A stretch of DNA of 64,000 nt from positions 4,340,001 to 4,404,000 of the forward strand of contig NC_089434.1 in the NCBI RefSeq assembly GCF_026210795.1, written 5' to 3'. Positions 11,897 through 58,797 of the stretch are shown piece after piece. The stretch is from Rhizophagus irregularis (lineage: Eukaryota). Both the position numbers and the translations under genes were made by a program. The notes below the pieces were generated by a model. It searched no databases. It was not told the origin of the DNA and worked only from the letters and a program-made list of their open reading frames with translations. The stretch's first letter is position 1. Every line of letters begins with the position of its first letter.

Positions 11897-12229
11897 TAAT
11901 TACAGCCAACAGAATATTCTTGTGTGTCAAAATTTCATATGATCAGATTTCATCATAAATGTTACAAAAAATTAAGTACTTTCAATAGAATCTTAAATGG
12001 AAGAGAAAACAAATAAATCATTGCTTATTCGATCAATGATAATCTTTCATTAGATAACATTTATAATAGTAATTTATGACTTAACTAATAAAAATTATAT
12101 AAATATCGATTATTTTCCTGTTAGCTTCGATATTGATTTTTCTTATTATTTATTGTTCATATATCATTTTAAATATATATACCAATATTCCTTTTTATAT
12201 TATTATTTTAGTCTTTATCTCTATTCATA

Positions 12230-13630
12230 ATGGTACAACTAGTTGAAGACGTTCTCTTGCTAATTTTCATCGAATTGCAAAATGATCCCGCTTCCTTATA
12301 TTCATGTATTTTAGTTAATAAAACATGGTGTCGAATAGCTGTACCTATATTATGGAAATATTTTTCCTATGCTTACAAAAACCCTTACAATCATAAACGA
12401 GAATCGCGTGAAAAACTTTACAATGTTATTGCGCATTTCTTACCAAATAGCTCAAAAGATAAATTGGCTAAAAATGACATCAAATTACCCTTAAATCTGA
12501 TTTCAAATATGTTATTGTTTAATTACATGGAATTTTTTACTCGTCTCACATCTGCTTTGATTGAAGATATGGCACGACTTTTAATTAAGGAGAATTCTAA
12601 TTATAAAATAAATTTGGTAGAGAATGAAATTTACAACTTAATTTTTAATAGATGTAAAAATATTAGGCATTTCAATTGGAATACTCAGGCACAATTATAC
12701 TTATGTCCAAATGCAGAAGAATTTTTTTCTAATATACGTTCATTAGAATTTAATTTTTTATTCATAACTCCAGTAATGTTACTTAAACTTGCTGTGATTT
12801 GTCAAAATATAACGGATCTTAAGATACACGATTGTGATGAAGACAGTTTAGATTTGGTTCTATTTATTAAAATGCAAAATAATTTGCGGTCTTTGAGTTT
12901 AAATTTTAATAACAAGGAAGAACAATACATACAATTAAGCAATATTATTGGTCAAAAAGCTGTTTTATTAAAAAAAATTTCATTAGGACCGGTGATTACA
13001 TTAATTCGACCTACGTTTTTTCCATCATTAACATATTTGCAATATTTGTTCCTAAATAATAATGATTGTGATTTATATGAGAGCGTGAACTGGCAAGAAT
13101 GGGAACACTATATAAATATGACCACTTTTCCATATCTTCAATACCTTAAAACTTTATATTTATTAAGTAGTATTGAATGTTTAATAATTGAAAGATCTGG
13201 AGAAAAAATTTTAGAAATTGATGTATACCATCCACTTAAGACCCAGGATTATCCAACTGAAAATAAAAAATTAATTAAAATGATCTCTCTACGTTGTCCA
13301 AAGATAATAAAGTTAACTTTGGACGTTGATCCTGATAATTTAGAAGAAATCAGTAATCTTCTTTCAAATTGTTCATTGTTGGAAAAAATATATTTTACAA
13401 CAAAAAACTATATATATCCTAATGGAGATAAACTACTAAAAATTATGAGCAATAAATCACCTGCTACATTGCGAGAATTTTCATTTGTAGACAAATGGAA
13501 TTTCTCATTAAAAGGATTAGAGTCATTTCTTGAAGATTGGAAAAATAAAAATCAATTTCCAATCAAATTTACTCATTATTACAAGGAATTCCCAAAAAGT
13601 TTTTGTTGGGTTTTTGTAAAAAAAATGTAA
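12230..13630 (+). CDS. F-box domain / LRR (RNI-like) protein
   Basis: 466-aa uninterrupted ORF; F-box LVEDVLLLIFIEL..SLYSCILVNKTWCRIAVPILW followed by LxxLxL repeats. Confidence 0.85.
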   Translation: MVQLVEDVLLLIFIELQNDPASLYSCILVNKTWCRIAVPILWKYFSYAYKNPYNHKRESREKLYNVIAHFLPNSSKDKLAKNDIKLPLNLISNMLLFNYMEFFTRLTSALIEDMARLLIKENSNYKINLVENEIYNLIFNRCKNIRHFNWNTQAQLYLCPNAEEFFSNIRSLEFNFLFITPVMLLKLAVICQNITDLKIHDCDEDSLDLVLFIKMQNNLRSLSLNFNNKEEQYIQLSNIIGQKAVLLKKISLGPVITLIRPTFFPSLTYLQYLFLNNNDCDLYESVNWQEWEHYINMTTFPYLQYLKTLYLLSSIECLIIERSGEKILEIDVYHPLKTQDYPTENKKLIKMISLRCPKIIKLTLDVDPDNLEEISNLLSNCSLLEKIYFTTKNYIYPNGDKLLKIMSNKSPATLREFSFVDKWNFSLKGLESFLEDWKNKNQFPIKFTHYYKEFPKSFCWVFVKKM

Positions 13631-14949: not shown

Positions 14950-17733
14950 TATCTATTTTAATAATAAGTTTAAACCTTTTTCAGCTTCTTGGCATCCATT
15001 TTCTGCTGCTTTTTTGTACCAATAAATGGCATTCTCAACATTTTTTTCGGTTCCTTCTCCCCGTTCATATAAAGATGCGAGGTTGTATTGTGCATCAACA
15101 TTTCCTCCTTTTGCAGCCATTGTAAAATAATTAAATGCTTTTTCTTTATCAATAACGATTTGAATTCCATAATTATAAATATACCCAACTTTATATTGAG
15201 CAATTATATATCCTTGATCAGCCGATTTCTTATAGAATTCAAATGCTCTTGTTTCATTTTGACGAATACCTTTACCTAATTCATAAAATTCACCTAATTA
15301 ATACAATGCAATTTTATTGTCATTTTCTGCAGCTTTATGATACCAATAATTGACTTTGTCTAAATCATTCACTATTTCATCATCATTTTTAATAAAATTA
15401 ATTTGGATGTTTAGTATATAATTCAAACCCCTTTTCTTTATTAATTTCAGTTCCTATTCCATTTACGTAATAATATCCAAGTATAAATTTTGCACCTATA
15501 TATCCACTTACAGCCGATTTTTTATAAAATTCAAATGCTTTAATTTCATCTTTATTTACACCTTTTCCCAACTCATACCATTCTCCTAAATTATTTTGTG
15601 CAACTTCATCACCATTTTCTGCTGCTTTTTGGTACCAGTAAAGAGCTTTTTAATATCCCTATCAATTCCAATTCCACATGAATAATAATATCCAAGTTGA
15701 CATTGAGCATCTACATTACCTTTTCCAGCTAAATCTTTAACTAATTCAACCGCTTTTTTCTCATTTTTATCAACCCCTTTTCCGAATTGATAACATTTAC
15801 TTAAATTGTATTGTGCATTAGTGTTTCCTTTTTCAGTTGCTATACTATATAATTCAAATGCTTCTGATTTGTTAACTTCAGTTCCAATTCCTTTATCATA
15901 ATAATATCCAAGCTTAAATTGGGCATCTGCATTACCTTTTCCAGCTAAATCTTTTATTAATTCAAATGCTTTTTTCTCATCTTTATCAACTCCTTTTCCT
16001 AATTGATAACAGTTACCTAAATTGTATTGTGCACCAATATTCAGCAGCTGCTTTGTATAATTCAAATGCTTTTGATTTATTAATTTCAGTTCCAATTCCT
16101 TTTGAATAATAATATCCAAGTTGGCATTGAACATCTACATCACCCTTTTCAGCTAAATCTTTTATTAATTCAAATGCTTTTTTTCCATTCTTATCAACTC
16201 CTTTTCCAAATTGATAACAATTTGCAAGATTAAATTTTGCACTTGTATTTTCATTATTAGCTGCTTTCTGATACCAATACACTGATTTTATAGTATTTTG
16301 TGCAATTCCAATACCAAATTCATAGCAATTCCCTAAATAAAATTGAGTAATAATATTACCACTTTCTGCAGATTTTTGAAACCAATTAAATGCTAAATTA
16401 TGATTACATTCAATTCCATATCCACCATCATAATAACATTTTCCAAGATAAACTTGTGCAAATGAATAATTATTTTCAGATGCTTTTAAAAATAGTTCAT
16501 AATAAAGTAATCCAAGTAAATAAACATATTGTGGATTTACTTGATTAGATAGCCATTTAATGAGATCGTCCAAGCTTTGATTTAATTCTAATACTTGTTG
16601 ATTAATAAATTGCTTAATATCTTGAAAATTAATACCTTCCCTATCATGTTTGCTGTTTATTTCTTCAACTAAATTTTCAACAACTATATTGTTTACCTTA
16701 TCAAATGTCGACCCATATGAAAAATATTGATGAATTTGTTTGAATTGTTGTATTTGATAAATTTTTCTCAGCATCCATTAAATTTAATCCAGTATTTGAC
16801 ATCAATTCATTATTTAAATCCATGGTCCCAATTGATTCTATTAGTTGATTGTTTTCTTTTTCTTTATTAACAGTATCAATAACTATATCATCTTGTTTAG
16901 GAAATATTAGTTTATAAAGGATTGAAACGACATTTTGTATATTTGGGCGTTCATCTGGCTCATATAACCAACATTCTAGTTATTTAAATATTGTTAAACT
17001 TTCTTTCAAGAAATTTATTAATTTATAAAATTATTAATATAAATTACCTGTATACAAATTACTATACTCTTTAGGAGTATTATCAATAATTTCTTCTCGC
17101 TTTCCATTTGCTATGGATAAGATTAAGCTTACATCATAATTATAATTAAAAAATGGTCGACGGCCACTTGAAATTTGCCACATTAAAACTCCTATTCCAT
17201 ATACATCAGATTTTTTGTTTAATTTGTAACCTTGATCATTTAACTTTTTGGGGTCAATGAAAGGTATTACGCCAAGTATTTTTGATACATTGCTTGATAC
17301 CTCGGCGATTTTTTTTGATAAACCAAAATCCGTCAGTTCTAGATTTTTCTGATGTACAAGTATATTATCTGCATGCTATTATTATAAAGAATCTTATTTA
17401 GTAAGAATATAATCAAATAATCAAATAATCAAATAACAAATTACAAAGCTAATAATTTATTATTACCAGATCACGATGAATATTATTACAATCATGTAAA
17501 CATTCTAATGCAGTGGCTAGTTGAAATGCTAACTGATACTTATCGGTCCAAGTGAGTTCATTAAAATGCTCATTTAAATAAGTTTTTAATGTACCATTAT
17601 TAGCATATTCTAAGACTAACGAATATTTTTCTGGATACAAAGATTATATTAAAAATGAAGCTCATTCAATAATGTATAATATATATCAAACTTAAAACTT
17701 ACCATTTTCTACTTTCGTTATTCCATAAAACCG
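14950..17733 (-). pseudogene. Tyrosine-kinase-like kinase plus Sel1-repeat protein, 5'-truncated with frameshifts
   Basis: Exons give [58 protein letters not shown], then many Sel1 repeats (AQYNLGNCYQLGKGVDKDEKKAFE) in shifting frames; no start codon or Gly-loop exon found upstream of 17733. Confidence 0.85.
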
Positions 17734-28672: not shown

Positions 28673-30140
28673 CTTTCTGTAGCGGTTATTTTAAAGTAAT
28701 TTTTTTTATATGATTATATGTATTTGTACTTAAAAACTTTACTAATAGATTTTGAAGAAAATGTGTTTTTATCATGTGTCTATCTTTATCTACTACATTT
28801 TCGAAGTTAGTACTTTTCAAAAAAATCTTAACCAGTTAATATTAAATTTTTTTTTAGTTGCAAATAATATTATACTCACATATTAGTTGTATTTCATTAG
28901 TCTCGTTATTACTTATTACAGTTGTACGGGTCACATTAAACTGGACATTTTCCTGAAACATCCAATTTCCTGAATTCTTATTTCCCAAATCTTCTGAAAT
29001 TCGATTTACTGCCAATATTCTGAATCCTAATATCTCGAATTACAATATCATGAATCCTGAATTTGCATAAATTGCTGTTTGTTAAACAATAATTAAAGTG
29101 AGGCATTCTAGATTTCTAGTTGAATGATAACTGTTCATTCTGTGTTTGTTTCGTGAATGCATTTTTGTATAAAGTGAACTTCAATAATAAAGTTAAAAAA
29201 TTTGGGAAGAATGTGCTGAGATCAAATTTACAAAAAAAAACACTTCTGTATGTCAAGAAAATTAATTCATAACTTAAAAATTATATTAAAAATTATGCCA
29301 AGAAATTTTTTTTCCGAAGTACAAACATCAAATTAATTTTAATTTCTTTTTCCTTTGATAATGAATAAAAAAAAAATACTTGTATTATTTAGAAAAACTA
29401 GACAAATTTTTTTTATTTTACTTAGCAAAACGATTGATCACGTGATATTAGTAAGATATTTTCCAGTAATATCCCTCAATTTTATCACCTAATCATTACT
29501 TAGTGAAATGAGTCCCGATTAGCCTATATGTTATTTCATACAATATATGAGCATCAATTATGACATATACACGTTAATTTTCTTATATTTTAATAGTTTT
29601 TTTTGTTTTATTCATGCTTTTATTTATTAATTTATTCATTCGTTTATTGTTTGCTCATTTATTTATTTATTAATTAATTTGTTTGTTTATTATCAAAAAT
29701 TTCTCAATTTTTACATATAAAAAAATAAATATTGAAAAAATAAAGTATCAGAAAATTAAAAATCACATGATATGAGGTGGGTTGCCAAATATTAATAGCC
29801 TTATATTATTATTTTGATAATTTATATCTCATAATTAGAAAAGTTATAAAAAGATTTATTTAAATTACAAACTAAGAAACTTGTAAAATATTTTACTACT
29901 CTAGTCTTAGTGTTTAAATAATTCTAAGTATAATAAAAAAGTGAATATAAATACATAATCTAAAAAAAAAAGAATTATTTAAATTACAAACTAAGAAACT
30001 TGTAAAACATTTTACTACTCTAGCCTTAGTGTTTAAATAAATCTAAAAGAATAAAATAAAGAGCAATTTTTGTTGAATACATGATATTCAAATATCACTT
30101 AAAAAAAGACTATAAATCATTTTAAAACACATATAATTGG

Positions 30141-33100
30141 TTAATTTTCATCTGTTTTAATATAATAAAATAAAATTAATTTTGTATAAATAATTGCAAG
30201 ATTAAATTTTATATGTACTATATTGCATACCTAATGACTTCAAGTCTTTAATCATATAATCATTCAAATTTTCACTTACTAGCATTTCATTTACTTCTTC
30301 ATTAGCTTGTAAATCTTCGCTTTCAAGAATTTCATTCAAGTTTTCACTAGTATTTTCAACTGCTTTAATATCTAAATAATCAAATAAATAATTCATTTTC
30401 ACATAAATAATTTGCAAGATTAATATTTTATATATTATAGTATATACCTAATATTCTCAAATCTTTAACCGCACAATCATTCAAATTTTCACTTTCAAGA
30501 ATTTCATTCAATTTTTTACTAGTAAAATCAAGTAAGCGACTTGTATAATATGCTTGTGAATGAGCTTCAATAGCAAGATTGCTATGCTGCCCAATTGGAG
30601 CATTTATAAATTCCATAATGTTGCTTTTTAATTCATCATCATCAGGACGACGGTAAATCCAATCCTTAATAACTTTTTTCACTTCTGAAGTAGATGGCCT
30701 TTTTAATGGATCTTCATTCCAACATTTTTTCATTAAATTTACATAACATTGTGGAGTATTTTCAATAATTTCAGGACGTTCACCTTTACAAATACTTAAA
30801 CTAAGTTGAATATCATGTGCTCTATTATTAAATGGTGGTACCCCAGATGTAAATTCCCACATAATCATAGAAAAACTATATATATCACTAGCTGGAGTGT
30901 AAAATTTGCCTCTTAAAACTTCAGGAGCCATAAATGGTATAACACCATAAATATCATACTTTTTCAAAAACGATTTTACAGGTTGACATAATCCTAAGTC
31001 ACTAATATAAATTTTATCCTTATTCTTATCATTATGATTTAAAATATTACCATCATGAAAATCACAATGAATAAGTTTTTCTCCATGTATCTTACTAAGT
31101 CCAGAAATAATATTGTACAACATATATAATTTTTGATTCCAATTAATTTCGACTATTCTTGTTAAATTTTCTCTTAAATTACCTTTATTTGCATACTCCA
31201 TTACTACCTTATATTTTGAAGTATTTGGATCTTCTGTGAATCCATAAACATTTATAATATCACCTGAAGATAAAACACTTGCATGATATTTCCACTATAA
31301 AAAATAATAATTATTATTATATACAAATAAATTTTAATTTAAATTAATAATAGAAAATAATATACTATCATACTTCTTTTAAAAATTCATTTAAATTTTC
31401 ATTTAAATTTTCATTTAAATTCTTGGGACATTTAAGAATTACTTCTTTATCTCCATTATCCTCTAACCAAGTAGCTTTGTATATAATACCAAATCCTCCT
31501 TCATTAAGATATTCAACATTTTTAAATTTGTTATGAGGAAACCATTTTAATCTATTTTTAACAATAAAATCATCCAAAATTGCATTTCCACTTTTTCCAA
31601 ATCTATAAATTTAAATAATTAAAATTATATTGTATATTGTATTATAATTTATACAAAATAATTTATTACTTACTCTAAAATTTAAATAGGAATTTAATGT
31701 AATATAAGTCTTAGTTTTTGGATAAATACATATAATAATCTATAATTTACAACTTACCAACTAAAGTAACAGATATTTTAAATGAAAGAATTAAATTAAC
31801 AAATAAATATTATATAAAATATATAACAATAGGAATACTTACAAGCTAGATCATAAATAATTTTTTAAATAAAGAAGTTAGATAGTTTAAATTATATGTA
31901 AATATTATAACAATAAGTAATAATAGAATTAAATAAATAACTTATAACTTACGATCTATTAAATAAATAAAGAAATTAGATAGTTTAAATTATATGTAAA
32001 TATTATAACAATAAGTAATAATAGAATTAAATAAATAACTTAAGACTTACCAACTAAAATAAATTACAAAATAATTTTTTAAATAAAGAAATTAGATAGT
32101 TTAAATTATATGTAAATATTATAACAATAAGTAATAATAGAATTAAATAAATAACTTACTCCCTATATTATTTAATAATTTTTTAAATAAAGAAATTAGA
32201 TAGTTTAAATTATATGTAAATATTATAACAATAAGTAATAATAAAATTAAATAAATAACTTACCATCTATAAAATAATTTTTTAAATAAAGAAATTAGAT
32301 AGTTTAAATTATATGTAAATATTATAACAATAAGTAATAATAGAATTAAATAAATAACTTATAACTTACGATCTATTAAATAAATAAAGAAATTAGATAG
32401 TTTAAATTATATGTAAATATTATAACAATAAGTAATAATAGAATTAAATAAATAACTTACCATCTATAAAATAATTTTTTAAATAAAGAAATTAGATAGT
32501 TTAAATTATATGTAAATATTATAACAATAAGTAATAATAGAATTAAATAAATAACTTACACCCTATGTTATTTAATAATTTTTTAAATAAAGAAATTAGA
32601 TAGTTTAAATTATATGTAAATATTATAACAATAAGTAATAATAGAATTAAATAAATAACTTACCATCTATAAAATAATTTTTTAAATAAAGAAATTAGAT
32701 AGTTTAAATTATATGTAAATATTATAACAATAAGTAATAATAGAATTAAATAAATAACTTACACCCTATGTTATTTAATAATTTTTTAAATAAAGAAATT
32801 AGATAGTTTAAATTATATGTAAATATTATAACAATAAGTAATAATAGAATTAAATAAATAACTTACCATCTATAAAATAATTTTTTAAATAAAGAAATTA
32901 GATAGTTTAAATTATATGTAAATATTATAACAATAAGTAATAATAGAATTAAATAAATAACTTATAACTTACAATCTATTAAATAAATAAAGAAATTAGA
33001 TAGTTTAAATTATATGTAAATATTATAACAATAAGTAATAATAGAATTAAATAAATAACTTACTCCCTATATTATTTAATAATTTTTTAAATAAAGAAAT

Positions 33101-34449
33101 TAAGGAAAGTAGTTTAAATTATATGTAAATATTATAACAATAAGTAATAATAGAATTAAATAAATAACTTACTCCCTATATTATTTAATAATTTTTAAAT
33201 AAGAAATTCGATAGTTTAAATTATATGTAAATATTATAACAATAAGTAATAATAGAATTAAATAAATAACTTAAGGCTACCAACTAAAATAAAATTTTAA
33301 AATAATTTTAAATAAGAAAGTTAGATAGTTTAAATTATATGTAAATATTATAACAATAAGTAATAATAGATTAAATAAATAACTTATAACTTACGATCTA
33401 TTAAATAAATAAAGAAATTAGATAGTTTAAATTATATGTAAATATTATAACAATAGTAATAATAGAATTAAATAAATAACTTAAGACTTACCAACTAAAA
33501 TAAATTACAAAAATAATTTTTAAATAAAAGTGAATGATAGTTTAAAATTATATGCTAAATATTTATAACAATAAGTAATAATAGAATTAAATAAATAACT
33601 TACACCTATATTATTTAATATAGATATCATATAACTTACACCCTGTAGTATTATTAATTATTAATTAGTTAGATATAAGATAATATAAAAGTATTTACTG
33701 TAAATTATATATATATTACTTACAATCTAGTTATTTAAATTAAGTATAATTAGTTGAATTATGTAAAATATTGAACAAATAAATATAATATATATATTGT
33801 AACTTACCATCTGTAATATAATTAATTATTATATAGTTATTTAAATAAAGAATTTAAGAACTTAGTTATTTGAATAATATGTAGAATAAGATAACTTACC
33901 AACTACAGTATTATTAATCATTAAATAAATTATTTTGTTATATAGAATACAATAAAAATAATAAGTAATTCATTATATTAACTTACAAGCTAAATATTTA
34001 ATAATTTTTATATAATATAGTTAGTTTAAATTATATTTGTAGTATTTGAGTTGTTTATAAATAAAAACTTAATACTTCATCTTGTTTGATATACCTTTAG
34101 ATTCCTTGGTATCACTTCCTTCAAATTCCTCAATATTACTTCTTTCAAATTCTTCAGTGCCACTTCCCTCAAATTCTCCAGTGCTACGTTCTTCAAATTC
34201 TTCTATATTACTGGAAACTAGTTTTGTTATATTGCAAATTTGGTTTAATTATGATTACAGTATTTACAATTAAATTATAAAATTCTTAATATTTCAACTT
34301 TGTTTTGTGTATTACATTTACCTTCAGATTCTTTGGTATTACACGAAACTAGTTTTATTATATTGCAAGTTTGTTTTAAAATTTGAATAATTCTAATTTA
34401 TATTACTATTCATGTTATATACTTTACCTTTATCAATACATTGACTCAT
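30141..34449 (-). CDS. Tyrosine-kinase-like protein kinase with an N-terminal micro-exon array
   Basis: Exons 34428-34449 (MSQCIDK), 34322-34348, 34095-34217, micro-exons in 31674-33989, 31374-31602 (EGGFGIIYKA, VILK), 30448-31294 (HCDFHDGN, SDLG, MAPE, SDIYSF), 30231-30371 and a last short exon ending TAA at 30141-30143. Splice phases are mutually consistent. Confidence 0.85.
31674..33989 (-). repeat. Tandem ~90-110-bp intron units separated by 3-nt micro-exons
   Basis: Each unit on + reads acttac-NNN-ct(a/g), i.e. (t/c)ag|NNN|gtaagt on minus; the homogeneous core units have a CTAAT branch-point-like motif upstream of the AG. Confidence 0.85.
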
Positions 34450-37841: not shown

Positions 37842-40800
37842 TCAGTCAGTGGAAATGTCCCCAAAAATTAAATCAAATTTTATTTAATATGTTTGACAAT
37901 ATAAAAATTCTAGCGTAGCATTGTCTTCAACTATATAGTGTGTATATATAATTTAAAGTTAGCTAAAATTAGTTAAATCAATTAAAATTGCCGATCAATA
38001 AATCATAATTCTGGCCAAATTTTTGTTAATTTTGGCCAATTGCGTAATGCCAGCCTAAATTTCATTAAAATGAAATAATGCAGGTCAAATGTAACACTGC
38101 ATTTACACAATGTAACGTCTCTAACTCAAATAATAAAAGTAAAACTTAATGACCACTTTTACAATCTTATTGAAAAAAATTTCGCAAAAGTTGTTGTTAA
38201 AGGGTTGCATTTCTCAGTTACATTTTGCCTATTTTTAGTGACTAAAAAAAATATAAACTGAAATATCCCAATATAATCGCCCTCTTTTTTTACCGTTTAT
38301 TGTAAATATGTCAGAAGAAGAAAGTTTTGACGAAATTAGTGAGTCTGAAAGAGTTTCACTAAAGTTTAATGAAATAATAAATTATATTAATGATAATACT
38401 GATAATACTAGTGCCTTTAGTGACATAGACTTCGAAGAACTTGAGGATATTGATGAGAAAATCAAAGAACACGAAATTTGTGATGAAATGGATAAAGTTA
38501 TAGACGATTTAGAACAACAAAAATTTACATCATGTGTAATTATTGATTACATGGAGGAAAATTTCGGCAATGTGAAGGAACAGGAAAATTAAGACAACTT
38601 CGCAATTTAATTGGCACATGGCAAGTTGATAGGGATGCTATTAAGGAGGTTGATGGTATTTTATCGAAGTTAGGAGTATGTGATTCACACTTTCAATTTG
38701 ACAATAAATATTTACATCAATCATCAAGTAAAAAAATTAAAGATTTTAATAAAGGAATTATTCAATGGCGTCGATGTATTTCTTGCAATAAATATGTAAC
38801 TTTCTTTTCCAGAGGTGCAGGATGCGCTATACATTCTTGGTATTTAAATAAGAAAAATATTCAAGTACCATGTATTGGACAATATAAGTGTGAGGCATTA
38901 CAATCATATCCAAATTTATGTAATCGAGCTTATGAGAATATTAAAAGATCTCAAAGCATTTGTTGCATATGCTATGAAAATTTAGGAGGGCATGTTCACC
39001 ACCGCTCTGGAGTTAGAGGAAAGAGTGCAACAACGTGTATTACCGAAAAGTTACATGAAGGTGATATAACAAAAGGACTTGAATTTATAGGAAATTTATT
39101 AATAAAAATTGCACAAATGGATAATAATGAAATTAAAAAAAATATTTTAGTTAAAACTTTTGAAATTCTTCGTCCACTAGCATCTAATGATGATTTTGAT
39201 ACCACAATTCCGATTCCAATAACTAGAACGTCAATAAATTATGAAGAACAAGAAAAAATTATTCTTGATAAACCTCCTACTTTATTTATGATAAAATTTC
39301 TTTTTATAAAAATTTATAAAGAAAAAGAAGTTAAAAAAAATGAAATTAATAATTATAAGGCAAATATTTCTTATTTTTTTTTTAAAAAAAAATATTTTTA
39401 ATTTTAATTATTTTTTATTTTTTTAACAGGAATTTGGATGTACATTAGGACAAAAATTATGGGACTCACGATTAAATATCTATTCAAAAAAATCTGCTAT
39501 AGAATCTCCACAAACTATTCAAGAATATTATAATGCTTTCCCAAAATTTTTGAATGATTTTTTTTCTGGAATGATTAATGAATTATATCAGAAAAAGATG
39601 AAAGTATGCAATATTAAACGAAAAAAACATCACAAATTACCAAAAATTATAATTCCAGAAGAAATAACAAAAACTGTAACATTTATAATATCAATATTAT
39701 TAAATCTAGCTTTTCCTCAACTGAAAGTTTGGCTACCTCGAATTTTAGCTAGTTTTAGTCGTATGCCACGATTATTAGGCTATTTTCGACAATTATTGAA
39801 AGTTTGCCATGTAATATCTCATACAGATCGACGTGAACGACAACTTGCAAATATTAGAATGGATACAACAGATCCATCAAAACGTCTAATTAAAGGAAAT
39901 AATATTTGGAATTTAGCTATCATCGATAATATCGATTTTAAAGAAAAAACCTTCAAATTTGGTAATATTTACGATGTTACTCGTGGCAGTTCTCATGCAA
40001 CCCTTCGAATGGCTTTTCAAATTCAGTTGCCAATTGAAGTAAAAACTGGTCCAGAACAGGTTATTGAATTAACTGCTGAAACCTTATTATTCGGAATGAA
40101 TCAGGGTGTTGAGAATACATTAACAATATTTCAACAAATCATATGTAAATTGTTAAATTTTAAAAAAATTAATGAAGAATTCACATATAATACGAATTTC
40201 AATGCAGAAACAATTAAACATGAAATACTTAATAAGTTAGATTATGGATCTTGTGGTGAATCTCCCAATATTGTAATCCTAGAACCAGGATCAAATCCAA
40301 ATTCAGATGAAGAAATATTCCATGTTGCCGAAATGTATAAGAAAGATTTTGCAATGGAAAGTGATTCTTTTCTAGATATTGTAGCAGATGAAGCAATATT
40401 TCGCCGATTAATTAAATGTCGAGAAAAATGGCCATATATAAGACCTCTTTTAGGTCAGTGGCATACATCCAAGGACTTTTGTTCAGTATTATTGGTACTA
40501 TTCTCTAGTTATGGACTATTAAGTCTAGCATCCCGTCTAGGTGTTCATTTTTTGGATAAGTTTGAATCTGCAATAGATTATCACTCAACAGCACGGGTAT
40601 TAGATCTTATATGGGTGGCAGTAGGAGTAGCAATAAATATATACGTTAATAAAAAAGAAATATTATTTTCTGAAATAATGAATGATGAAAAAAACAAGCA
40701 CATTTGTCTTAAGGTAATCATTTTATTAAATTAACAACACAGACACTTTTTTTTCTAAAAAAATTAATATATTTATATTTCACTTGTATTCAGATCTGGT

Positions 40801-42254
40801 ATTTGTATTATAAATGGGCTGGAATTTGGAAAGCTCATCGGATGGGAATGCGCGTTGGAAATTTTGGATTACAACGAGATTCATTATCTGCAGCTGGACC
40901 CCTTTATGCAAGTGCGGCAAAATCAAACTATACAACGGCTATTGCACATTTTCTTGCCACTATAGCAGCTCATCCCCAATTAGAAGAAAAATTAAATCAT
41001 TGTAGTGCTTTCAAAATTCCACATGATATTGATGGTGGTCTACATCACGTTTGTTTTGGATTTGATGAGGCCCTTGAGACATTTGGAGTAAGGTTTATCA
41101 AAGGAAATGTAAGTGGAAATGTTATTGACGAAAAAAATCTTAAAAATCAAATAAAAGCATCCCAAAGTGAAAGAGAAAGAATAGATCTTTTAATGAGTGA
41201 GTATATTAATGATAATTCAATTTCACATAGTGAAAGGGCAATTAAATTACGCCAAGAGTCCTTATGGGAGCTCGTTAACGATCTAGTAGCAATATTTGAA
41301 ATGGATAATCCATTATCCCACCAATTATTTCAAAAATATAAACCTACAGAAATTCATCAGGAGGGGCTTGATCGTCTTATTGCATGCTATCCAAATGGAT
41401 TAGAAAGAATTAAAGGAATATATCGACAGGAAGTTTTAAAGATAGAAAATAGAAATACTAAAGGTAGAAGAGCGGTAGGAGTGGTTAGAACGAAAGTAAA
41501 AGATTACAATAACCAAAAAAAATCAATCAATCAATCTGTTACCATGTCTTTGCAATCACAACAAAGAGATACAGATGAAATTTTGAATGAAGACTACCTA
41601 CCCGATACAACCAATCCACAACTTAAACAAAAAAAGCATCGAACTACTAAGGAGAAGATGGAAATACTTTCTGCATTGAAAGTATATAAAGATAAACTGC
41701 CAGACGATGCTATTTCTTCTGTTTGTGAACATTTGTCAGAAATTTGGACTAAAAAAAAAGTAAGGGAGTGGTGGAATTATCATAAGGACAAATAAAATGC
41801 GCTTTTTTCCTAATAAAAAAATATTTATTTGTGTTAGTTATATGCTTAATTTAACTAATATTATTGCAATAAACCAAAAATTCTGCAATTGTCATAAAAA
41901 TTACTATCCCAATCACCTTTTTACGCTTAAGTAACTTGATCGGGCGTAAAAAATTGCATATAATTAGTAATATAAAATAAAGTTTAACGTTTGTTTAAGG
42001 GTTGCATCTGGGAGATAAAACCAAAAAAATAGGAGAAAAGCAGCTATAATAAAGTTTTTTGTAAAAGTATTGTATTATGAAAAAAAACATTGAAGAGTGT
42101 AGACGAAAATATAAAAAAAAAGGTTCGTTAAAAATTTTTGCCACGTTGCATAAAAAAAAATCACGTTGTATTAATCATGACTATTTAGGTATTTTATTTG
42201 CCGATCAATTTTTAATTAGTGATCAACACGTGAAATGACATTTCCGTTGACTGA
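37842..42254 (+). mobile_element. Transposase-bearing DNA transposon, Academ-like
   Basis: TIRs tcagtcagtggaaatgtc / gacatttccgttgactga flanked by tata on both sides (the TSD/TIR boundary is ambiguous); encloses one large gene. Confidence 0.75.
38308..41795 (+). CDS. Large Academ-like DDE transposase with Cys/His-rich region and C-terminal homeodomain-like segment; one frameshift
   Basis: Frameshift at ~38552, GC-AG intron 39360-39429, GT-AG intron 40714-40793; motifs IIDNIDF, IVADEAIF, LLGQWH, KSNY, FDEALET. Family assignment is from motif recall only. Confidence 0.65.
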
Positions 42255-48189: not shown

Positions 48190-48826
48190 AAATTTCTCAA
48201 TCCAAATGACCCCTTCGATTAAAAAATTATCAAAAAAAAATCTTTCCAAATGAACCCTTAGAAAATTCTCTATCAAAAATGCCCTAAGCGATTCCCTTAA
48301 TTAAAAAATACAAAAAATAATTTTCCTAAACGAACTCTTAGAAATTTCTCTATCAAATGATACCTTCAGTTAAAAAATTCTCAAAAAATAATTTTTCCAA
48401 ACAAACTTTTAGAAAATTCTCTATCAAAAAAATTCTCTATCAAAAAATGTTCCAACAGTCCCTTTGGTTAAAAAATTCTCAAAAATAATCTCTCCAAACG
48501 AATCATTAGAAAATTCTCTATCAAAAAATGCCCTAAACGATCCCCTTAATTAAAAAATTCAAAAAATAATTTCCCTAAACACACTCTTAGAAAATTCTCT
48601 ATCAAAAAATGCCCTAAATGATTCTTTTAATTAAAAAATTCTCGAAAAACCATTTCCCAAACGAACTCTTAGAAAATTCTCTATCAAAAATGTTCCAAAC
48701 GTTCCCTTTAGTTAAAAAATTCTCAAAAATAATCTCTTCAAACGAATCCTTAGAAAATTCTCTATTAAAAAATGCCCTAAATGATCCCCTTAATTAAAAA
48801 ATTTAAAAAATAATTTCCCTAAACGA
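48190..48826. repeat. ~81-bp satellite, left part
   Basis: Repeated ttagaaaattctctatcaaaaa...ttaaaaaattc units, cut by the LTR at 48827. Confidence 0.9.
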
Positions 48827-50028
48827 TGTAAACGGTCGAATATCAAGCACGAAAAGATGATAAAATTCAACTACCAAACGTAATTGCCAAATGTTAAGAA
48901 CGAACAAATTAATTATGAATTGGCGTAGATGGATAAATAATTAGCCGAAAAGGATAAACATTTAGGAAGAGTAATGATCTACATGATGTAATATTTATCA
49001 AATGATTGACAAAGAACCAATAGGATAAATAGAGTCGATCAATTGGGGCTTAGCAATCTTTAACAATAAGAACGATAAGAAAGAATAATTATAAGCCACA
49101 AAAGATAGGTTATAAGCAAAACACATAAAGCAAGTTAAAAGAACATATAAAATAATGTCAGAAAGATTAAAGAACATAAAATAATATAAAAGATAATATA
49201 AAAAGATAGTATAAAGATGGAACGTAAAAGATAATATATTAAAAAGAACATATATAAAAAGATAATATATTAAAAAGAACATATATAAAAAGATAATATA
49301 TTAAAAAGAACATATATAAAAAGATAATATATTAAAAAGAACATATATAAAAAGATAATATATTAAAAAGAATATATAAAAGATAACATATTAAAAGATA
49401 GCGTATTTAAAATATAGATAGCATATTAGAAAGATAGTTCAAAGATAATATGTAAAAAGAATATAAAAGATAGTATATAGATAGAATAGAAAGTAGCATA
49501 AAATTTGTATAAATAGAGAACGGAATTCAAAGTAATTCCACAGTTCTCATCCACAGAACTCAATAAAAATATAAGTTTCATTTAATTATGTGTTAGTAAA
49601 GTTTAATGTTAATTAAAGGTAATAGGTTCGCCCTAAACTTTAATTAATGTTCGCTTAATTAATTTTAATTAAATAAATGAAAATTTTAAGATGAATTAAA
49701 TATATGTTTTTGAAAAGTAATAATTCGTAGCGAGAGCTATCGAATTTTGAAATTAAAGATAAAAGTGGATATAATTTGGGAAAATTTAGAGAAGTTAATT
49801 TTATTTTATATCGTTCAACGTTTTATATTACTAACGCTATTTATGTTATGAACCAAGAATGTTGTTGTATGTTGTTCGTTGATTATGTTGTTTGTTAATT
49901 ATGCTGTTGATTATTCGCTTGTTCATTTATTTGTTTGTTCGTTCGTTCATTCGTTCGTTCGACCATGAGAATGCCCTTTCGATGTGGCAACTCTGTAAAT
50001 TGATGACAGAGGGAATTGGGGGATCTCA
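48827..50028 (+). repeat. 5' LTR (1202 bp)
   Basis: tgtaaacggtcg...ggggatctca; contains a 31-bp tandem repeat with one more copy than the 3' LTR. Confidence 0.95.
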
Positions 50029-50030
50029 TA

Positions 50031-50045
50031 TGGTGCATGCTCGCA
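50031..50045 (+). promoter_or_regulatory. Primer-binding site
   Basis: TGGTGCATGC.. begins 2 nt after the 5' LTR; TGG is complementary to tRNA CCA. The tRNA identity is not determined (Gly is a guess). Confidence 0.7.
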
Positions 50046-51518
50046 AGAAAGGAAATGATCATCATCACATGATTATTATTATAATGAATATGAAAATTTA
50101 ATTTCGTTAGTAAGTCACTGATAGGTATTATTAATCAATATTTTATTTTAGAATTTATTTTTAGATTTCAGGTTTTAACGAGTTCAAAAGGAACCAATAA
50201 ATCAATAAGGATTTAATCGAGTTAGAAACTTGAAAAGGTGAAAGATTGGAGTTTGTTGTTGTGCAAGTAATCATTTAATCGATAGAAAGCACAAGAATAT
50301 TTCTTTCGGGAATAAAGTACCTGAGAAATTTTATAAGGAGATGTAGAAGCGAAAGATGAATTTTGGAATAAAGATTAATAATGGGAGAACACCAATGTAT
50401 TATCTGGGGTTCATCTGTGTAGTATGGGTTACCTCTAAGCTTGAATTTTGGATAAATGCTCTAGATTGGAAAATTTTTATTCTTCGACATTAAGGATTAT
50501 AACGTATGGGTTACGTCAAATCTGGATACCCAGCTCAATAATGCGCAAATTGCTTTGGGGACGGGGAACGAAAATTGTAAAGACACCTACTATCAAGAAA
50601 CATTGAATGGATAAAATGGGACAAACCTGTAAACTATCATGCTTTTACCCAATGGGAAAAAGATAGAGATAAGTCCAGTATAGGTCCACCAATTTGAGGA
50701 AAGATAAGTTGGTTTAGATGAGTTTTATGGATAGCTGATGACTTTTGAAACTGGATTTTGGAAGGTTAGATTCACCCGTTAAGAGACGAGTCAGCCAACG
50801 AAAGAAGAAAAGATGGATATGTTGTGTTGTTACAGGCTTTAGGCTACATTTCAGATGAGGATCCTGGTGTAGTGTGCTAAATCACGTTTTCATTACAACG
50901 TTCCGTTGAAAGAAGATAACATAGAAGGATATTTACACATTAACGAGCCGTATAATGAACATTACGTACAGTATTTAATAATAGAATAAAATCCGGAAAG
51001 AAGGACATTCGTTTAAAAAGGATATTTATTTAAAAGAAGAACATTTATTTGAAAAGAAGAATATTTATTTGAAAAGAACGACATTTTGCGTACTATAGAT
51101 TAATTTATATAATATAGAATATATAGTAAGAAGGATTTATGTGGACGATAAGAAAGATGGAAAATTCGCAAACTTTAAAAGTTATGAAAATTTTGGAGTT
51201 TGTGATATGTGATATGTGAGATTATGGATCTTGGTGACAAGAGATAAACTTTGTGGAGCAGTAAAAACCTCCGCAGTCTGAGGAGATCGTGGACCTAGAA
51301 TAATTTTTGGAAATTTTGAGGCGCAGTAAAAATTAATAGTAAAATATGGCATAGTAAATATATAAAACCGAAAGATGGAATTTAAAGATTGAAAGAAGCA
51401 ATCTATTTAAAGATAAAAGAATGTTTGGAAGATTGAAAATAGAAACGATAAGAGTGAAATATATATATATAAAAGGAGGTGAGATTTTAGTTAAGATTCT
51501 GGATGAACGATTACAACG

Positions 51519-52829
51519 ATGGAATGGTATGAAACTTGGAGGGTTGATTACGAAAACCACAAATTAAGACATGACGAAAATATCGGAAATGTAGATATAG
51601 ACGAATTAAGAGGAGAAAATATAACATGTGAAATATGTTATCCAATAAGAAATACACCAGAAGTTTTCAAGAAATTTTGGAAAATATTGCAAAAATTTGA
51701 ATATACGATAAAAGATTATAACGCAGAAACTATAAGAGCGTTATTAAATTTATTAAGTATAGATAGTGAAGAAAGAAATAATTATACAAAAGGAAGGACT
51801 AGAGATGCATTAGATGTAATGGTCGAATCGATAAGATACTTGAAACAACCAGTATTAAGAGAAAAAGGATTAAAGATAATAATAATAGTAATCGTGAGAG
51901 ATTGTATAGAGAATGATAAAGAAGATGAAACAATGGACAGATTAATAGGGAACGAAGAATTAATAAGATATGGTTATATTTTGGAAAATTGGGATGTGAA
52001 TATAAGATTTGGGGAATTTTATGAATGGTATAAAGAAGCTATAACAGATTTTATAGAATGTAAAGATAGCACTATTAGAAGATACAAAAATATATTGTAT
52101 GAGGAAGCAGAATTAAAAGAAGATGAGTCAATAGAAAAAATAGAAGCGTTCAAACAAAAGATTAGATCGATGTTGAACACAATGTACGTAAAAGGTCATG
52201 GTGGAGGAATTGCGAAAGAAGTAATTGAAAAAGTTTATGATAAGATTAGGGGGTTTGAACAATTAAATATAGATGAAACAGATAGTGATGACACACCAAG
52301 AAGTTATACTATAACAGAAACAGACGATGGGGAAGAAGAAAGTTTACCAATTAGTAAAAATGAAGAAATGTCAGATGAGGAATCTGATGAATCTAATGAA
52401 TCTAATAATGTTGAAAAAACAGAAACAACAAAGATATTCAAAGAAATAATTAGAATGGATTTGAAAAGAATGGGTTATGATGTAGAAATAACAGAAATTG
52501 AAAGAATAAGAAAATTTGGAGTAACCGCAAAGATAATAACAACGTACGAATTTATGAAGAAATATTTAACAATATGGAATCTTGAAGATGAAGAATTAGA
52601 TGAACAAATATTACAATGGAGAGTTGAAAATACAAAAGAATGCGAAAGATGTGAAATTGAAAGATTAAAGAAAGAATTTAAAATTGGAGAAGAAATTTGC
52701 GTAGAATGCGAGAAAGATGTTGAAAAAGAAGATCCAACGGATGACGAAGAGGAAATGGAAGAGGATATAAAAAAACCCGAAATTGGCTCAAGTAAAAAAC
52801 CAAAAGTAAAGAGAAAAATAAAAAATTAA
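51519..52829 (+). CDS. Extra retroelement ORF upstream of gag, unknown function
   Basis: 436-aa open frame inside the element; H-x3-H..CxxC near the N-terminus, CERC..CVEC near the C-terminus, acidic tracts, basic tail KKPKVKRKIK. Confidence 0.75.
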   Translation: MEWYETWRVDYENHKLRHDENIGNVDIDELRGENITCEICYPIRNTPEVFKKFWKILQKFEYTIKDYNAETIRALLNLLSIDSEERNNYTKGRTRDALDVMVESIRYLKQPVLREKGLKIIIIVIVRDCIENDKEDETMDRLIGNEELIRYGYILENWDVNIRFGEFYEWYKEAITDFIECKDSTIRRYKNILYEEAELKEDESIEKIEAFKQKIRSMLNTMYVKGHGGGIAKEVIEKVYDKIRGFEQLNIDETDSDDTPRSYTITETDDGEEESLPISKNEEMSDEESDESNESNNVEKTETTKIFKEIIRMDLKRMGYDVEITEIERIRKFGVTAKIITTYEFMKKYLTIWNLEDEELDEQILQWRVENTKECERCEIERLKKEFKIGEEICVECEKDVEKEDPTDDEEEMEEDIKKPEIGSSKKPKVKRKIKN

Positions 52830-52885
52830 AGGAAGTACCTATAATACCAATAATACCAGCACCACCAATAAAACTGAAGATAACA

Positions 52886-54622
52886 ATGGCAGTAACAAGA
52901 GATGAATTCAGAACAGATATAAGAGCAGTAACGAATACTATGTATGGTCATGATATTGGGCCAGATTGGAACAATTTAGCAGTACCACCAATAACATTGA
53001 CAGGATTACAAGGAGAAGTTCAAGCGAATACTAATGCAATAGGAAATTTAAACGCAAATAGGGGAGCTATTGTGGAAATACCAGCATTTTATGGTACCAG
53101 TGGAGAAGATCCAGAAGAATGGGCAGATAAATTTGAGGAGACATTTACAGCGAATGGTTTAGGGAATGATGATGCACAGAGATTTAGAATAGCAAAAGCG
53201 AGATTAATGGGAGGAGCAGCAGATTGGTTAAAGACTGAAGGAGTAAATATTGTCGATTGGAATGTTAATGGAGATCATAATTTAAGATTAAGAGAAAGAA
53301 TAATTGGAAAGTATGCAAGTGATGAAATTAAAGATAGATGGCTAGAACAATTAGAAAAGATTAGACAGGGAGACGAGAATGTAACTCAATACCTTACGAG
53401 ATTTAAGTATATGTTAAAGAGAGCGGGAGGTGATGCAGCAGTAGCAGCAAATCAGCAAAAGAGAATTTTTAATAGAGGATTAAAACCAGACTTTACTAAA
53501 GACGTAGTAATGGGAAATCCAGCAGATTTAAACGCAGCATTTCAGATAGCAAAAAACGTAGAAAGAGGTTTAGAAGCATTAACAGATAAAGTACAACCAA
53601 AAGAAATTAATGATGAACAAAGAAGACAAGGACCTATTGTTCAAGGGAATGTAAGGAATAATAGAGAGGTAAATGTAGATGAATTAACAAGCAGTTTTGC
53701 GAAGTTACAAATTAAGATATTAGAAGATGAGAATGAAAGATTAAGAAATTTAGCGAGTCAGAGTTATAGGCAATTGCCACAAAGAAACCAACCAACACAA
53801 AGAAATCAACCAATTCAAAGAAATCAGTCATTCCAAAGAAGGGTACTGACATGTTTTACATGTGGTAGAATTGGTCATTATTCAAGAGAGTGTCCGGAGA
53901 AAAGAAGGAATGTAAGAGTGAATATGATGGACGAATACAATGACCAAGAGGAATACGATTATAATGGATATGAATGTGAGGAACCACAATACGGTGAAAT
54001 GTATTATACACAAGGTTATTACGATGATTATGAAGATAGGGAATTAAATTACTATAATGAGTTATACGCAAAAGATAACGCAGTAAAACCAAGAAGACAA
54101 TCAAGAAGGACGAATCCAATAGTAGGATATAAAAATAATAATGAAGAAGGAAATCTACAAGAAGAATTAAGAGAGGCAGGAAATAGGATGGATGATAGAG
54201 AAATACCAAGTGGAACAACAGGATACACGCCTGAATGGACAGAACAAAATAATGTATACAAAGATAGTCAAAATTGGGACAATCCAATAGGACCGGAAAA
54301 TTATAATTATGGTCATCGACCTATGACAAAAGATGGAAGATTTTATAAACCAATGTTCACAAAAGGAGGCAAAGTATTCTACCCCGGAATGCGACAAGAC
54401 GAATCTGGAGAATGGGCTAGAACAAAGCCATCAGGAACAGGAAAACCCAGAGTATATGGACCGAGATTAACAGATGAAATACCACCTTACGATATTGTAG
54501 GAGACGTAAAAAATTGTAGAGCAAATATAACATATGGACAATTAATAAATGAGAATACTAAGTATCATAAGCAATTGAGAGAAGGAACATATAGACCAAG
54601 GAGCATAAATGAGAAAAATTGA
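52886..54622 (+). CDS. gag: Gag
   Basis: FYGTSGEDPEEW, IRQGDENVTQYLTRF (major-homology-like), zinc knuckle CFTCGRIGHYSREC. Confidence 0.92.
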   Translation: MAVTRDEFRTDIRAVTNTMYGHDIGPDWNNLAVPPITLTGLQGEVQANTNAIGNLNANRGAIVEIPAFYGTSGEDPEEWADKFEETFTANGLGNDDAQRFRIAKARLMGGAADWLKTEGVNIVDWNVNGDHNLRLRERIIGKYASDEIKDRWLEQLEKIRQGDENVTQYLTRFKYMLKRAGGDAAVAANQQKRIFNRGLKPDFTKDVVMGNPADLNAAFQIAKNVERGLEALTDKVQPKEINDEQRRQGPIVQGNVRNNREVNVDELTSSFAKLQIKILEDENERLRNLASQSYRQLPQRNQPTQRNQPIQRNQSFQRRVLTCFTCGRIGHYSRECPEKRRNVRVNMMDEYNDQEEYDYNGYECEEPQYGEMYYTQGYYDDYEDRELNYYNELYAKDNAVKPRRQSRRTNPIVGYKNNNEEGNLQEELREAGNRMDDREIPSGTTGYTPEWTEQNNVYKDSQNWDNPIGPENYNYGHRPMTKDGRFYKPMFTKGGKVFYPGMRQDESGEWARTKPSGTGKPRVYGPRLTDEIPPYDIVGDVKNCRANITYGQLINENTKYHKQLREGTYRPRSINEKN

Positions 54623-55135
54623 CTACACTCAGTGGGAACTATGAAAAATGAGGAAAAAATAACTACAGCAATGAGAACGGAATTAGAAGTTGAAGATCAA
54701 TTAGTGAATGTAATAATAGATACTGGAGCAGCAGTAAGCGTGATAACAGATAAATTAAGAAGAAGATTGAATATACCTATATTTGGAAAAAGTAAATTTA
54801 GATGTACAATAGCAAATGGGCAAAAGATAGTAGCATTAGGAAAGGCAAATATAACTTTAAGATACAAAGATGAATTAGAGATATTAAAAGAAGTTGAAGT
54901 GATCAATTCAGAAGAAGATGATCTAATTTTGGGAAATGACATATAGAAGTTGTATAACACAAAAATAAATTTTGAAGATCATACCTTAAGAATAGAAGAA
55001 CAGGGAGAAATAATAACGATTCCAGTAGGATATGAAAGAGAAGTAGCATATGAAAGTGAGAAGAGTGAGGACGATGAAGAATATGAAAGTAACGATGAAG
55101 AAGAGGTATTCAAAATGCACCAGAATTTTAAATAG
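54623..55135 (+). CDS. Retroviral-type aspartic protease, in frame with gag, with an internal TAG
   Basis: VIIDTGAAVSVI and LILGND motifs; TAG at 54944-54946, after which the same frame continues to 55135. Confidence 0.85.
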
Positions 55136-55170
55136 AAAGTCTTGGCTCTGAAGAGAGAGAGACGGAAAAG

Positions 55171-57252
55171 ATGCTCGAACCAAGTGAAAAATTTATGCAA
55201 AAATTAAGTATAGGGAAAGTAGAAGAACCAATTTGGGAAAATATGGTAAAATTACTATTAGAATACCAAGATATTTTGGAATACGATGAGGAAATAGAAG
55301 GAAGAACGAAAGCAGCGCAACATGAGATAAAAATAAAAGATGGGGTAGAACCAATAAAGCAAAGAAGATATAAAGAAACAGATGAAAAGGCAAAATTTAT
55401 AAGCGAAGAAGTAGATAAATTGTTAAAACAAGGAAGGATAAGGAAATCAAAAAGTCCATGGAGTTCACCGGTTACATTAGCAGGAACAAAAACGGGAAAA
55501 TATAGATTCTGTATTGATTACAGAAAGTTAAACAAAATAACTATAATGGATAGTTTTCCTTTACCAAGAATGGATGAATTGTTAGACAAATACAGAAAAG
55601 CAAAATGGTTTTCAAGTATAGATTTAGCGGCAGGATTTAATCAGGTAGAAATGAAAGAAGAAGACAAAGAAAAAACAGCATTTGTATGTTCGAAAGGATT
55701 GTTTGAATATAATGTAATGCCGTTCGGTTTAACGAATGTACCAGCAACATTTCAAAGATTAATGAATGAAATATTAGAAGAATACATAAACGATTTTGTA
55801 GTAGTATATATCGATGATATTATGATATATTCAGAAAATTTAAAAGACCATATGGAACATGTGGAAAAAGTATTAAAGAAGTTACAGGAGAATAATTTAA
55901 TAATAAAATTAAAGAAATGTAGATTTTTGGAAAGAAACATAGAATTTTTAGGACATATAGTAGGAAATGATGGATTAAGGCCAGACGATAAAAAGATAGA
56001 AAAGATAAAAGAAATGAAGGCACCAACAACAGTGAAAGAAGTAAGATCATTTTTAGGACTTTGTTCATATTACAGAAAATTTGTGAAGAATTTTTCAAAG
56101 ATAGCAAGACCAATAAGTGATTTGAGAAAGAAGGGAATACCTTTCATTTGGGGAAGAGAACAACAAGAAGCGTTTGAAAAATTGAAAGAAAAGTTAATAC
56201 AATATCCAATATTGCGACATCCAGATTGGAAGAAAGAATTTCTATTAATAACAGATGCATCAGGAAAAGGATTAGGTGCAGTATTAAGTCAAAAAGATGA
56301 AAAAGGAAAAGAAGTAGTAATAGCATATGCAAGTAGAAGCTTATTACCAGCAGAAGAAAATTATCCGATAACAGAATTGGAATGTTTAGGAATAGTTTGG
56401 GGAATTCAACATTTTCATAAATATTTGATCGATAGAAAATTTAAAGTAATAACAGATCACAATGCATTAAAAGGATTAATGAATGCAAAGATACCAAAAG
56501 GAAAAAGAGCAAGATGGGTGATGGAATTACAGCAATATAATTTTGAAGTAATACATAGATCAGGAAAAGAAAACACGAATGCCGACGCATTAAGTAGGTT
56601 ATTGAAGATAGTAGAGGATCAACCAGAAATAGTAATAATCGACAGAGTAGATGGATTAGGAAAAACAAGTATAGTACAAAATTTAATTAGAGAATGGGAA
56701 AAACAAGGATTAAAAGTAAGATTCAATACCTATAAAAGGAGAAGAAAAGATAAAGATGAATTTTATGAATCAAAGATGGAGACGGAATGGAAATTCAGAA
56801 AAGAAGTAGTGGAACAAATAAACAGAAGAATGTTAGAATATGATGAAGATACAGATATAATAATTTTAGACAAATCACCATATTGTGAATATTATTATCA
56901 AAAGACGAAAAGTTTTGACAGAGGATTAATTACTCCACATGGAAATCATGAGATGGAAAAAGAAATATTCAGATTGAAAGAAACAATAGATAAATCTATA
57001 GTGATATTTTTAGAAAAAGATGGTGATGTATGTTGGAAAAATTACATCAGAAGAGAAACGAAGAAAACGGAAAAATCATCATATCCAACATTAAAGAAGG
57101 ATGAATATTTGGACATGGTTAAAATGTTTGAAGAAAATCAGAGCGTGTACAAAAATACCAAAAGATACAGTCGAGTAAAAGTTAAAAATGACGATAATAG
57201 CTGGAGAAAAGTATTTAAAGAGGTGGAGAAATGGAGAAAAGCACAGAACTAA
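55171..57252 (+). CDS. pol: Reverse transcriptase-RNase H fused to a P-loop nucleotide-kinase-like domain
   Basis: RFCIDYRKLN, MPFGL, YIDD, TDASG, ELECL, NADALSR; then IVIIDRVDGLGKTS and ILDKSPYCEYYYQ. Confidence 0.92.
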   Translation: MLEPSEKFMQKLSIGKVEEPIWENMVKLLLEYQDILEYDEEIEGRTKAAQHEIKIKDGVEPIKQRRYKETDEKAKFISEEVDKLLKQGRIRKSKSPWSSPVTLAGTKTGKYRFCIDYRKLNKITIMDSFPLPRMDELLDKYRKAKWFSSIDLAAGFNQVEMKEEDKEKTAFVCSKGLFEYNVMPFGLTNVPATFQRLMNEILEEYINDFVVVYIDDIMIYSENLKDHMEHVEKVLKKLQENNLIIKLKKCRFLERNIEFLGHIVGNDGLRPDDKKIEKIKEMKAPTTVKEVRSFLGLCSYYRKFVKNFSKIARPISDLRKKGIPFIWGREQQEAFEKLKEKLIQYPILRHPDWKKEFLLITDASGKGLGAVLSQKDEKGKEVVIAYASRSLLPAEENYPITELECLGIVWGIQHFHKYLIDRKFKVITDHNALKGLMNAKIPKGKRARWVMELQQYNFEVIHRSGKENTNADALSRLLKIVEDQPEIVIIDRVDGLGKTSIVQNLIREWEKQGLKVRFNTYKRRRKDKDEFYESKMETEWKFRKEVVEQINRRMLEYDEDTDIIILDKSPYCEYYYQKTKSFDRGLITPHGNHEMEKEIFRLKETIDKSIVIFLEKDGDVCWKNYIRRETKKTEKSSYPTLKKDEYLDMVKMFEENQSVYKNTKRYSRVKVKNDDNSWRKVFKEVEKWRKAQN

Positions 57253-57312
57253 AAATATAGGATACATAACAAAAATAACAAATTTAGAAGTAGAATCAAT
57301 TAAAGAAATATT

Positions 57313-58794: not shown

Positions 58795-58797
58795 TAA

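Follow-up and report, generated by a model that had tools for sequence, protein, structure and literature searches.

A 64,000-nucleotide (nt) stretch of Rhizophagus irregularis DNA (contig NC_089434.1, positions 4,340,001 to 4,404,000; hereafter the window, to which all coordinates refer) carries on its minus strand a protein kinase gene that holds, ahead of the kinase domain, an array of 23 predicted exons of three nucleotides each and one of a single nucleotide, all bounded by splice signals. The kinase array is real, spliced at least in part and family-wide, and it probably encodes a selected, variable segment of ~24 residues that is diversified by gaining, losing and reordering units in the DNA. 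Directly seen are the splice signals and their spacing, the dependence of the frame on the 1-nt exon, the phase-1 position of the exons and the class-specific flanks that accompany them.

All 23 triplets of the original prediction were recovered on the minus strand with the positions and letters it had listed (23/23), each lying between AG and GT, and the 1-nt unit A at 31674 is likewise present, with acceptor TTTTAG and donor GTAAGT. The pattern YAG-NNN-GTAAGT occurs 22 times in the window, always within the array; in 100 shuffles it averaged 0.64 occurrences and never exceeded 3. This control ignores tandem repetition and leaves the count of 22 inflated by copying. On the same strand, spacings of 4 or 5 nt between acceptor and donor gave no matches, and no second micro-exon array was found within the window. 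Apart from a single intron of 34 nt, intron lengths range from 71 to 111 nt; 26 of 26 introns end in YAG, 24 of 26 start with GTAAGT, and most array introns hold a branch-like motif near the acceptor. The central part of the array, the core (31855–33620), is a 99-base-pair (bp) tandem repeat of about 17 copies, in which 16 of 17 introns start with GTAAGT, all 17 end in TAG and a shared 67-nt segment holds a branch-point-like CTAAT or CTAAC. Given this tandem copying, the eight outer introns are a fairer control than the motif count. Their bodies are 0.60–0.70 identical to the nearest neighbour, where shuffled maxima reach 0.61–0.68 and two of the eight, at 0.70, slightly exceed their own shuffles; despite this divergence, 8/8 end in YAG, 7/8 start with GTAAGT and the 3-nt spacing is kept, in line with the original prediction.

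The reading frame ties the array to the kinase. Exon 3, the upstream anchor, ends in phase 1 and the kinase exon starts in phase 2, so that direct joining is out of frame; the 1-nt exon restores the kinase frame, and any number of triplets may be added to it. When all 23 triplets are included along with the 1-nt exon, the full model comprises 31 exons and encodes 489 amino acids before a single terminal stop; the micro-exons supply 70 of its 1,470 coding nucleotides. The stop-free spliced translation claimed earlier was reproduced, and it needs the 1-nt exon A, which the text of that prediction had left unnamed. With the micro-exons in phase 1, every residue is encoded across two of them, its first base lying in one exon and the remaining two in the following one. 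The predicted weak donor GTAGCC at 33281 is as described, and skipping its unit leaves the frame intact. The unit at 33604–33605 indeed has only 2 nt and a short upstream intron, which measures 34 nt; inclusion of this unit shifts the frame, retention of its intron gives a stop, and it must be skipped because inclusion breaks the frame, in keeping with the suggestion that it is skipped or dead. When skipping was simulated, none of the 276 ordered triplet pairs gave a stop, and the 7 triplet types reach 15 amino acids. Stop avoidance was rejected as proof of selection because it is too weak (p 0.05–0.10), and a 5-nt last exon (31670–31674), suggested by public models, was ruled out by frame and RNA.

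By homology, the host gene is assigned to an expanded Rhizophagus kinase family of the PF07714/PF00069 type. Pfam matches are PF07714 (E 1.2e-33, 117 bits) and PF00069 (E 4.2e-32, 112 bits), and the catalytic motifs VILK, EFLKE, HCD..GN, DLG and MAPE can be read from the sequence. Among the matches listed, all 120 are named Rhizophagus, the best at 78%. A profile of exon 3 matches 32 public proteins, all named Rhizophagus, including one R. irregularis model that is 95% identical. One paralog model, P0013, begins with MGQC, and the host gene has Ser at position 2; we take the MGQC start to be a possible myristoylation/palmitoylation start.

RNA reads were taken from two polyA runs (X23 and X24; two samples of a single study, roughly a quarter of each run) and aligned to 30100–31850 at 90% likeness, the unaligned loose ends considered being those listed. 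Reads ending exactly at 31602, the edge of the kinase exon, number 107 in X23 and 140 in X24, and RNA depth falls from ~170–207 at 31516–31574 to ~4 at 31634–31692. In both runs, the consensus of the loose ends begins with TCAAAAGCAT on the plus strand. The last four units joined predict TCAAAAGGAT, with which the consensus agrees at 9 of 10 letters, and the agreement is 7 of 7 for A, TTG and CTT, the last three units; it fits neither the unspliced intron, nor the 5-nt exon, nor direct joining to exon 3. The RNA supports joining of the last three units in paralogs of the kinase family, not in the locus copy itself. Contigs of X12, whose RNA label is a guess and which cover introns as DNA would, continue across the last introns in numerous copies, with up to 22 contigs at a single position, and the paralogs therefore have these introns as DNA. 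RNA contigs of X15 gave no cover at 31280–31850, and six RNA metatranscriptome rows with shares below 0.1 were left out of account. Within the kinase exon, both raw runs also hold opposite-strand RNA joints at 30795–31028 with 6–24 reads each, which are probably paralog or library artefacts.

These data bear on two other accounts of the array. One holds that it is an intronic satellite with inherited pseudo-splice sites, the RNA letters coming from an ordinary contiguous exon in paralogs. It can appeal to an RNA-dominant paralog that is not among the DNA seen, but the gene loses its frame if the 1-nt exon is left out, the diverged introns keep an exact 3-nt spacing, up to 22 X12 contigs run through the last introns, and a relative, locus L001, has TTG and A as separate units; this account is largely refuted and very unlikely. 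The other restricts use to the old outer micro-exons: the central satellite of 17 units would be a recent expansion that is mostly skipped or leaves this copy poorly expressed. It fits the limitation of RNA support to the last units, in paralogs, a frame that also holds with the 1-nt exon alone, and the decayed units at the 5' edge of the core. We consider it improbable in view of the near-complete conservation of core splice sites and the branch-like motif, the intact kinase frame, and triplet-like stretches of 21–43 residues in eight public models; moreover, the loose ends, with median lengths of 41 and 37 nt, do not continue from the last units into the end of exon 3.

The core also reveals how the array may have grown. 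Its 16 exons fall into four classes, TTG, ATY, ATG and GGW. An acceptor tail of 12 nt is peculiar to each class; donor heads are consistent within a class, with one head common to two of the four. Of the 17 introns, 11 have an identical 67-nt core, and the 15 neighbour pairs include 10 different ones. As class-specific tails and heads surround a shared core, the copying unit is tail-exon-head; the intron-exon duplication proposed earlier is therefore supported in a refined form, with a cassette centred on the exon as the unit. Each triplet moves together with its flanks and the 67-nt core is shared, which suggests reshuffling in DNA; crossing-over within that core would reorder units with the splice sites unharmed. 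Judged by its flanks, which are those of the GG class, the 2-nt unit seems to be a decayed cassette of that class, and the weak donor derives from a TTG-class head by mutation; both units are probably dead cassettes, as expected under birth and death.

A metagenome scan of 28 of 64 parts yielded six loci (L001–L006), two of which, L001 and L003, show units. In L001 (59% protein identity), TTG and A likewise form separate units, in matching places and with the same in-frame glutamate; the intron core of L001 is 94% identical over 50 nt, and its last intron is no more similar than shuffles (0.66 vs a maximum of 0.72). L003 has one forward and one inverted cassette: the inverted ATG cassette with the shared intron core (L003:1–150, minus strand) adjoins forward cassettes, and the donor of the unit ahead of the kinase exon seems broken. 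L002 has only 66 nt of upstream DNA and L005 none; L004 and L006 belong to another kinase subfamily and have no units. Prokaryote and viral collections gave no useful matches. Collectively, paralog RNA for the last three units, the frame, the diverged outer introns and the distant relative L001 uphold the micro-exon reading of the original prediction.

Public protein models appear to misread the segment: some stop within intron 1, others begin downstream of the array, and others translate it in a different frame. Sorted by a crude pattern among the matches listed, 19 of 120 models have SK as the last residues ahead of the kinase motif, 5 take the last-but-one intron as coding and splice from the donor following the 1-nt exon, 3 continue across the TTG unit, 39 do otherwise and 54 are without a usable upstream part. 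Seven (P0378, P0380, P0384, P0387, P0388, P0391 and P0399) terminate inside the array's first intron (34071–34094, minus strand), which they read as coding, so that the gene is split in annotation. Among 402 public proteins, 11 have a stretch with at least 16 of 20 residues I, L, G, M or V at the position of the segment, and all of these carry one of two anchors; such stretches would result from phase-0 reading of the triplets, the last exon being taken as 5 nt long. Long triplet-like stretches of 21–43 residues occur in the eight models mentioned above. P0401 and P0017 are identical at 273 of 275 kinase residues and at 11 of 20 aligned segment residues, and P0013 and P0377 share 48 of 49 upstream residues with segments that differ by single-residue gaps.

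Such comparisons also bear on a neutral account, in which the micro-exons are constitutive and the segment is a tolerant linker, array size drifting neutrally and selection removing only frame-breaking or stop-making units. The AT-rich, repeat-prone genome with several satellites within the window, the recent homogenised expansion and the two decayed units all suit it, and it predicts conservation of splice signals equally. On the other hand, the segment varies where the kinase is 99% identical, the layout and intron core are kept in the relative that is 59% identical, and introns have not simply been lost in the family. Neutrality could survive these points, and we regard the tolerant linker as unlikely, if worth serious weight.

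Several observations weigh against a selected, spliced and variable segment. RNA support covers the last three units, and inclusion of the upstream 20 triplets is predicted from sequence. RNA depth is 9–13 inside the intron at 31693–31751. The reads come mostly from paralogs (90–95% alike), those at least 99% alike to the locus numbering 103 of 2,327 and 115 of 2,701, and the paralog dominating the RNA consensus is not among the DNA seen. Agreement within the consensus is 0.62–0.63, for which paralogs or isoforms could be responsible, its letters 11–30 mismatch the locus, and both runs belong to one study. The lack of triplets that would create stops exceeds chance only slightly (p 0.05–0.10), and public models contain triplets coding for E, R and Q, which suggests that skipping could produce stops in some paralogs. 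Of the 25 units, two have decayed. The class-specific flanks of the 16 core exons reach p 5e-5, the permutation floor, in a test that treats near-identical core copies, which are non-independent items, and new neighbour pairs are equally made by plain tandem duplication of blocks. The long phase-1 segment is in no public protein examined, the six matches to E before FGKS all being short or intron read-through, and segment differences between public models may partly come from gene-finder choices.

On the favoured reading of a spliced one-codon array, a mechanism can be proposed. A 1–3-nt exon has no room for two spliceosomes, so the introns would be recognised singly (intron definition) and spliced out one after another. 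The upstream 20 triplets would be included in the mRNA and the decayed cassettes, the 2-nt unit and that with the weak donor, would be skipped. In the DNA, unequal crossing-over or conversion within the shared core would reorder cassettes. Whether skipping of intact triplets yields isoforms is about evenly poised. That the segment, rich in D, G, Y and F, tunes recognition of a kinase partner or substrate, perhaps in nonself signalling, is rather doubtful. A bolder version can be put forward tentatively: the array may be a codon-level diversity generator, carried by a kinase subfamily of arbuscular mycorrhizal fungi, in which a library of one-codon cassettes is reshuffled in DNA via the intron core and sampled by skipping, with the 1-nt exon locking the frame. 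Since two neighbouring cassettes would jointly make each residue, a few cassette types would suffice for most amino acids, and the resulting recognition segment would be hypervariable from strain to strain, nucleus to nucleus and transcript to transcript, yet invisible to present annotation.

The nearest parallel is the nank family (NACHT-ANK; Iotti et al. 2012) of Tuber melanosporum, for which the citing passages report tens of alternatively spliced codon-sized exons (PMC4986451, PMC13449251, PMC3689799). Both belong to expanded gene families of mycorrhizal fungi, and in both a run of codon-sized units is proposed to serve diversification; with 23 units of 3 nt in a row and canonical signals, the kinase array has the layout of the nank type, and RNA places its last three units in spliced transcripts of paralogs. 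However, nank is an ascomycete NLR, whereas the array reported here lies in a protein kinase of Glomeromycotina; Pfam gives kinase families only, with no NACHT or ankyrin. Phase-1 exons, an obligatory 1-nt exon and cassettes are features seen in the kinase array, and alternative splicing, reported for nank, may occur in it.

Other systems are more remote. Micro-exon genes (MEG) of Schistosoma are reported to have exons of 3–81 bp that hold most of the coding sequence, introns of 0.2–5 kb and secreted products (10.1101/2023.06.21.545858). They resemble the kinase array in their runs of very short exons and variable multigene family, but here the exons are 1–3 nt, the introns 71–111 nt, no signal peptide is evident, and the micro-exons make up a small part of the coding sequence (70/1470 nt). 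Coprinopsis cinerea has isolated 1–3-nt exons in 89 gene models, 13 with a 1-nt exon, according to the passages seen (PMC12230235); fungal spliceosomes can evidently handle such exons, and missing them breaks gene models, although the source gives about one tiny exon per gene, against 24 in the kinase array. Brown algal receptors (Zambounis et al. 2012), as cited in PMC13449251, have similar units, some on the non-coding strand, and a proposed DNA shuffling, to which the inverted cassette of L003 is akin; their unit is a whole protein repeat, whereas that of the kinase array is one codon's worth. In recursive splicing, AG directly abuts GT at a zero-length ratchet point and nothing is retained in the mRNA. 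In the kinase array, 1–3 nt lie between AG and GT and, for the last three units in paralogs, are present in RNA. A long-read annotation of R. irregularis counts 2,533 kinase genes, and the passages found do not mention micro-exons (PMC10234402). The original prediction was unsure of its novelty: codon-sized arrays as such were already known from Tuber nank in the passages cited, and for arbuscular mycorrhizal fungi or the Rhizophagus kinase family no description was found in the literature searched, which left most subscription journals outside. New are the building of residues in phase 1 from two neighbours, the cassette structure and the apparent misreading by public models.

Table 1. Parts of the kinase gene and its micro-exon array, in window coordinates.
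Feature	Position	Strand	Basis
Predicted exon 1: start codon, 22 nt, phase-1 end	34428..34449	-	AG/GT borders, open frame; P0013 and P0069 N-termini similar
Predicted exon 2, 27 nt	34322..34348	-	
Exon 3: acidic 24-bp repeats, phase-1 end, upstream anchor of array	34095..34217	-	
Five old 3-nt micro-exons (33987, 33900, 33808, 33724, 33640) with diverged 81–105-nt introns between	33640..33989	-	Splice signals
2-nt unit behind 34-nt intron, GG-class flanks, probably dead	33604..33605	-	Frame models, flank class
Homogenised core: ~17 units of ~99 bp, 16 three-nt exons, 4 cassette classes	31855..33620	-	
TTG unit, decayed donor GTAGCC, probably weak or dead	33281..33283	-	Skipping keeps frame
3-nt micro-exon CTT, third from last	31843..31845	-	Joined form in RNA loose-end consensus
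3-nt micro-exon TTG, penultimate	31758..31760	-	RNA consensus; kept in L001
1-nt exon A, required for kinase frame	31674..31674	-	Frame models, RNA consensus; kept in L001
Kinase exon A: pre-kinase motif, glycine loop, VILK lysine, alpha-C glutamate	31374..31602	-	
Kinase exon B: HCD catalytic loop, DLG, APE	30448..31294	-	Pfam matches
Putative acidic tail exon	30231..30371	-	Gene model; RNA depth
Putative last coding exon and stop	30141..30151	-	

Elsewhere in the window, a Ty3-type retroelement with long terminal repeats (48826–59968, plus strand; repeat pair of ~1.2 kb, 96.9% identity) has frames for gag, reverse transcriptase-RNase H and integrase and an upstream frame of 440 amino acids with no Pfam match. 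Fused behind its RNase H are ~215 residues (56605–57252, plus strand) with a P-loop-like motif and no Pfam match, a segment that presumably resembles a nucleotide kinase. An 81-bp satellite flanks the retroelement on both sides (48202–48826 and 59968–62701), which suggests insertion into the satellite. Three further genes, a Sel1-repeat gene split over two frames (15586–16777, minus strand), an F-box/LRR gene (12212–13630, plus strand) and a TLDc gene (6482–7595, plus strand), belong to typical expanded families of these fungi. Three long adjacent frames at 38547–41795 (plus strand), two of which were scanned with no Pfam match, are possibly a transposon-derived gene.

Rhizophagus has ~2,500 kinase genes whose purpose is unexplained (PMC10234402). 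If a subfamily of them does hide a segment made of 1–3-nt exons, public protein models would be wrong at the N-terminus, and the array would represent an overlooked source of protein variation in a presumably clonal symbiont, as well as an independent origin of a Tuber-type device in a distant fungal lineage and another protein class. It would also offer a natural test system for how the spliceosome handles two dozen consecutive exons of 1–3 nt.

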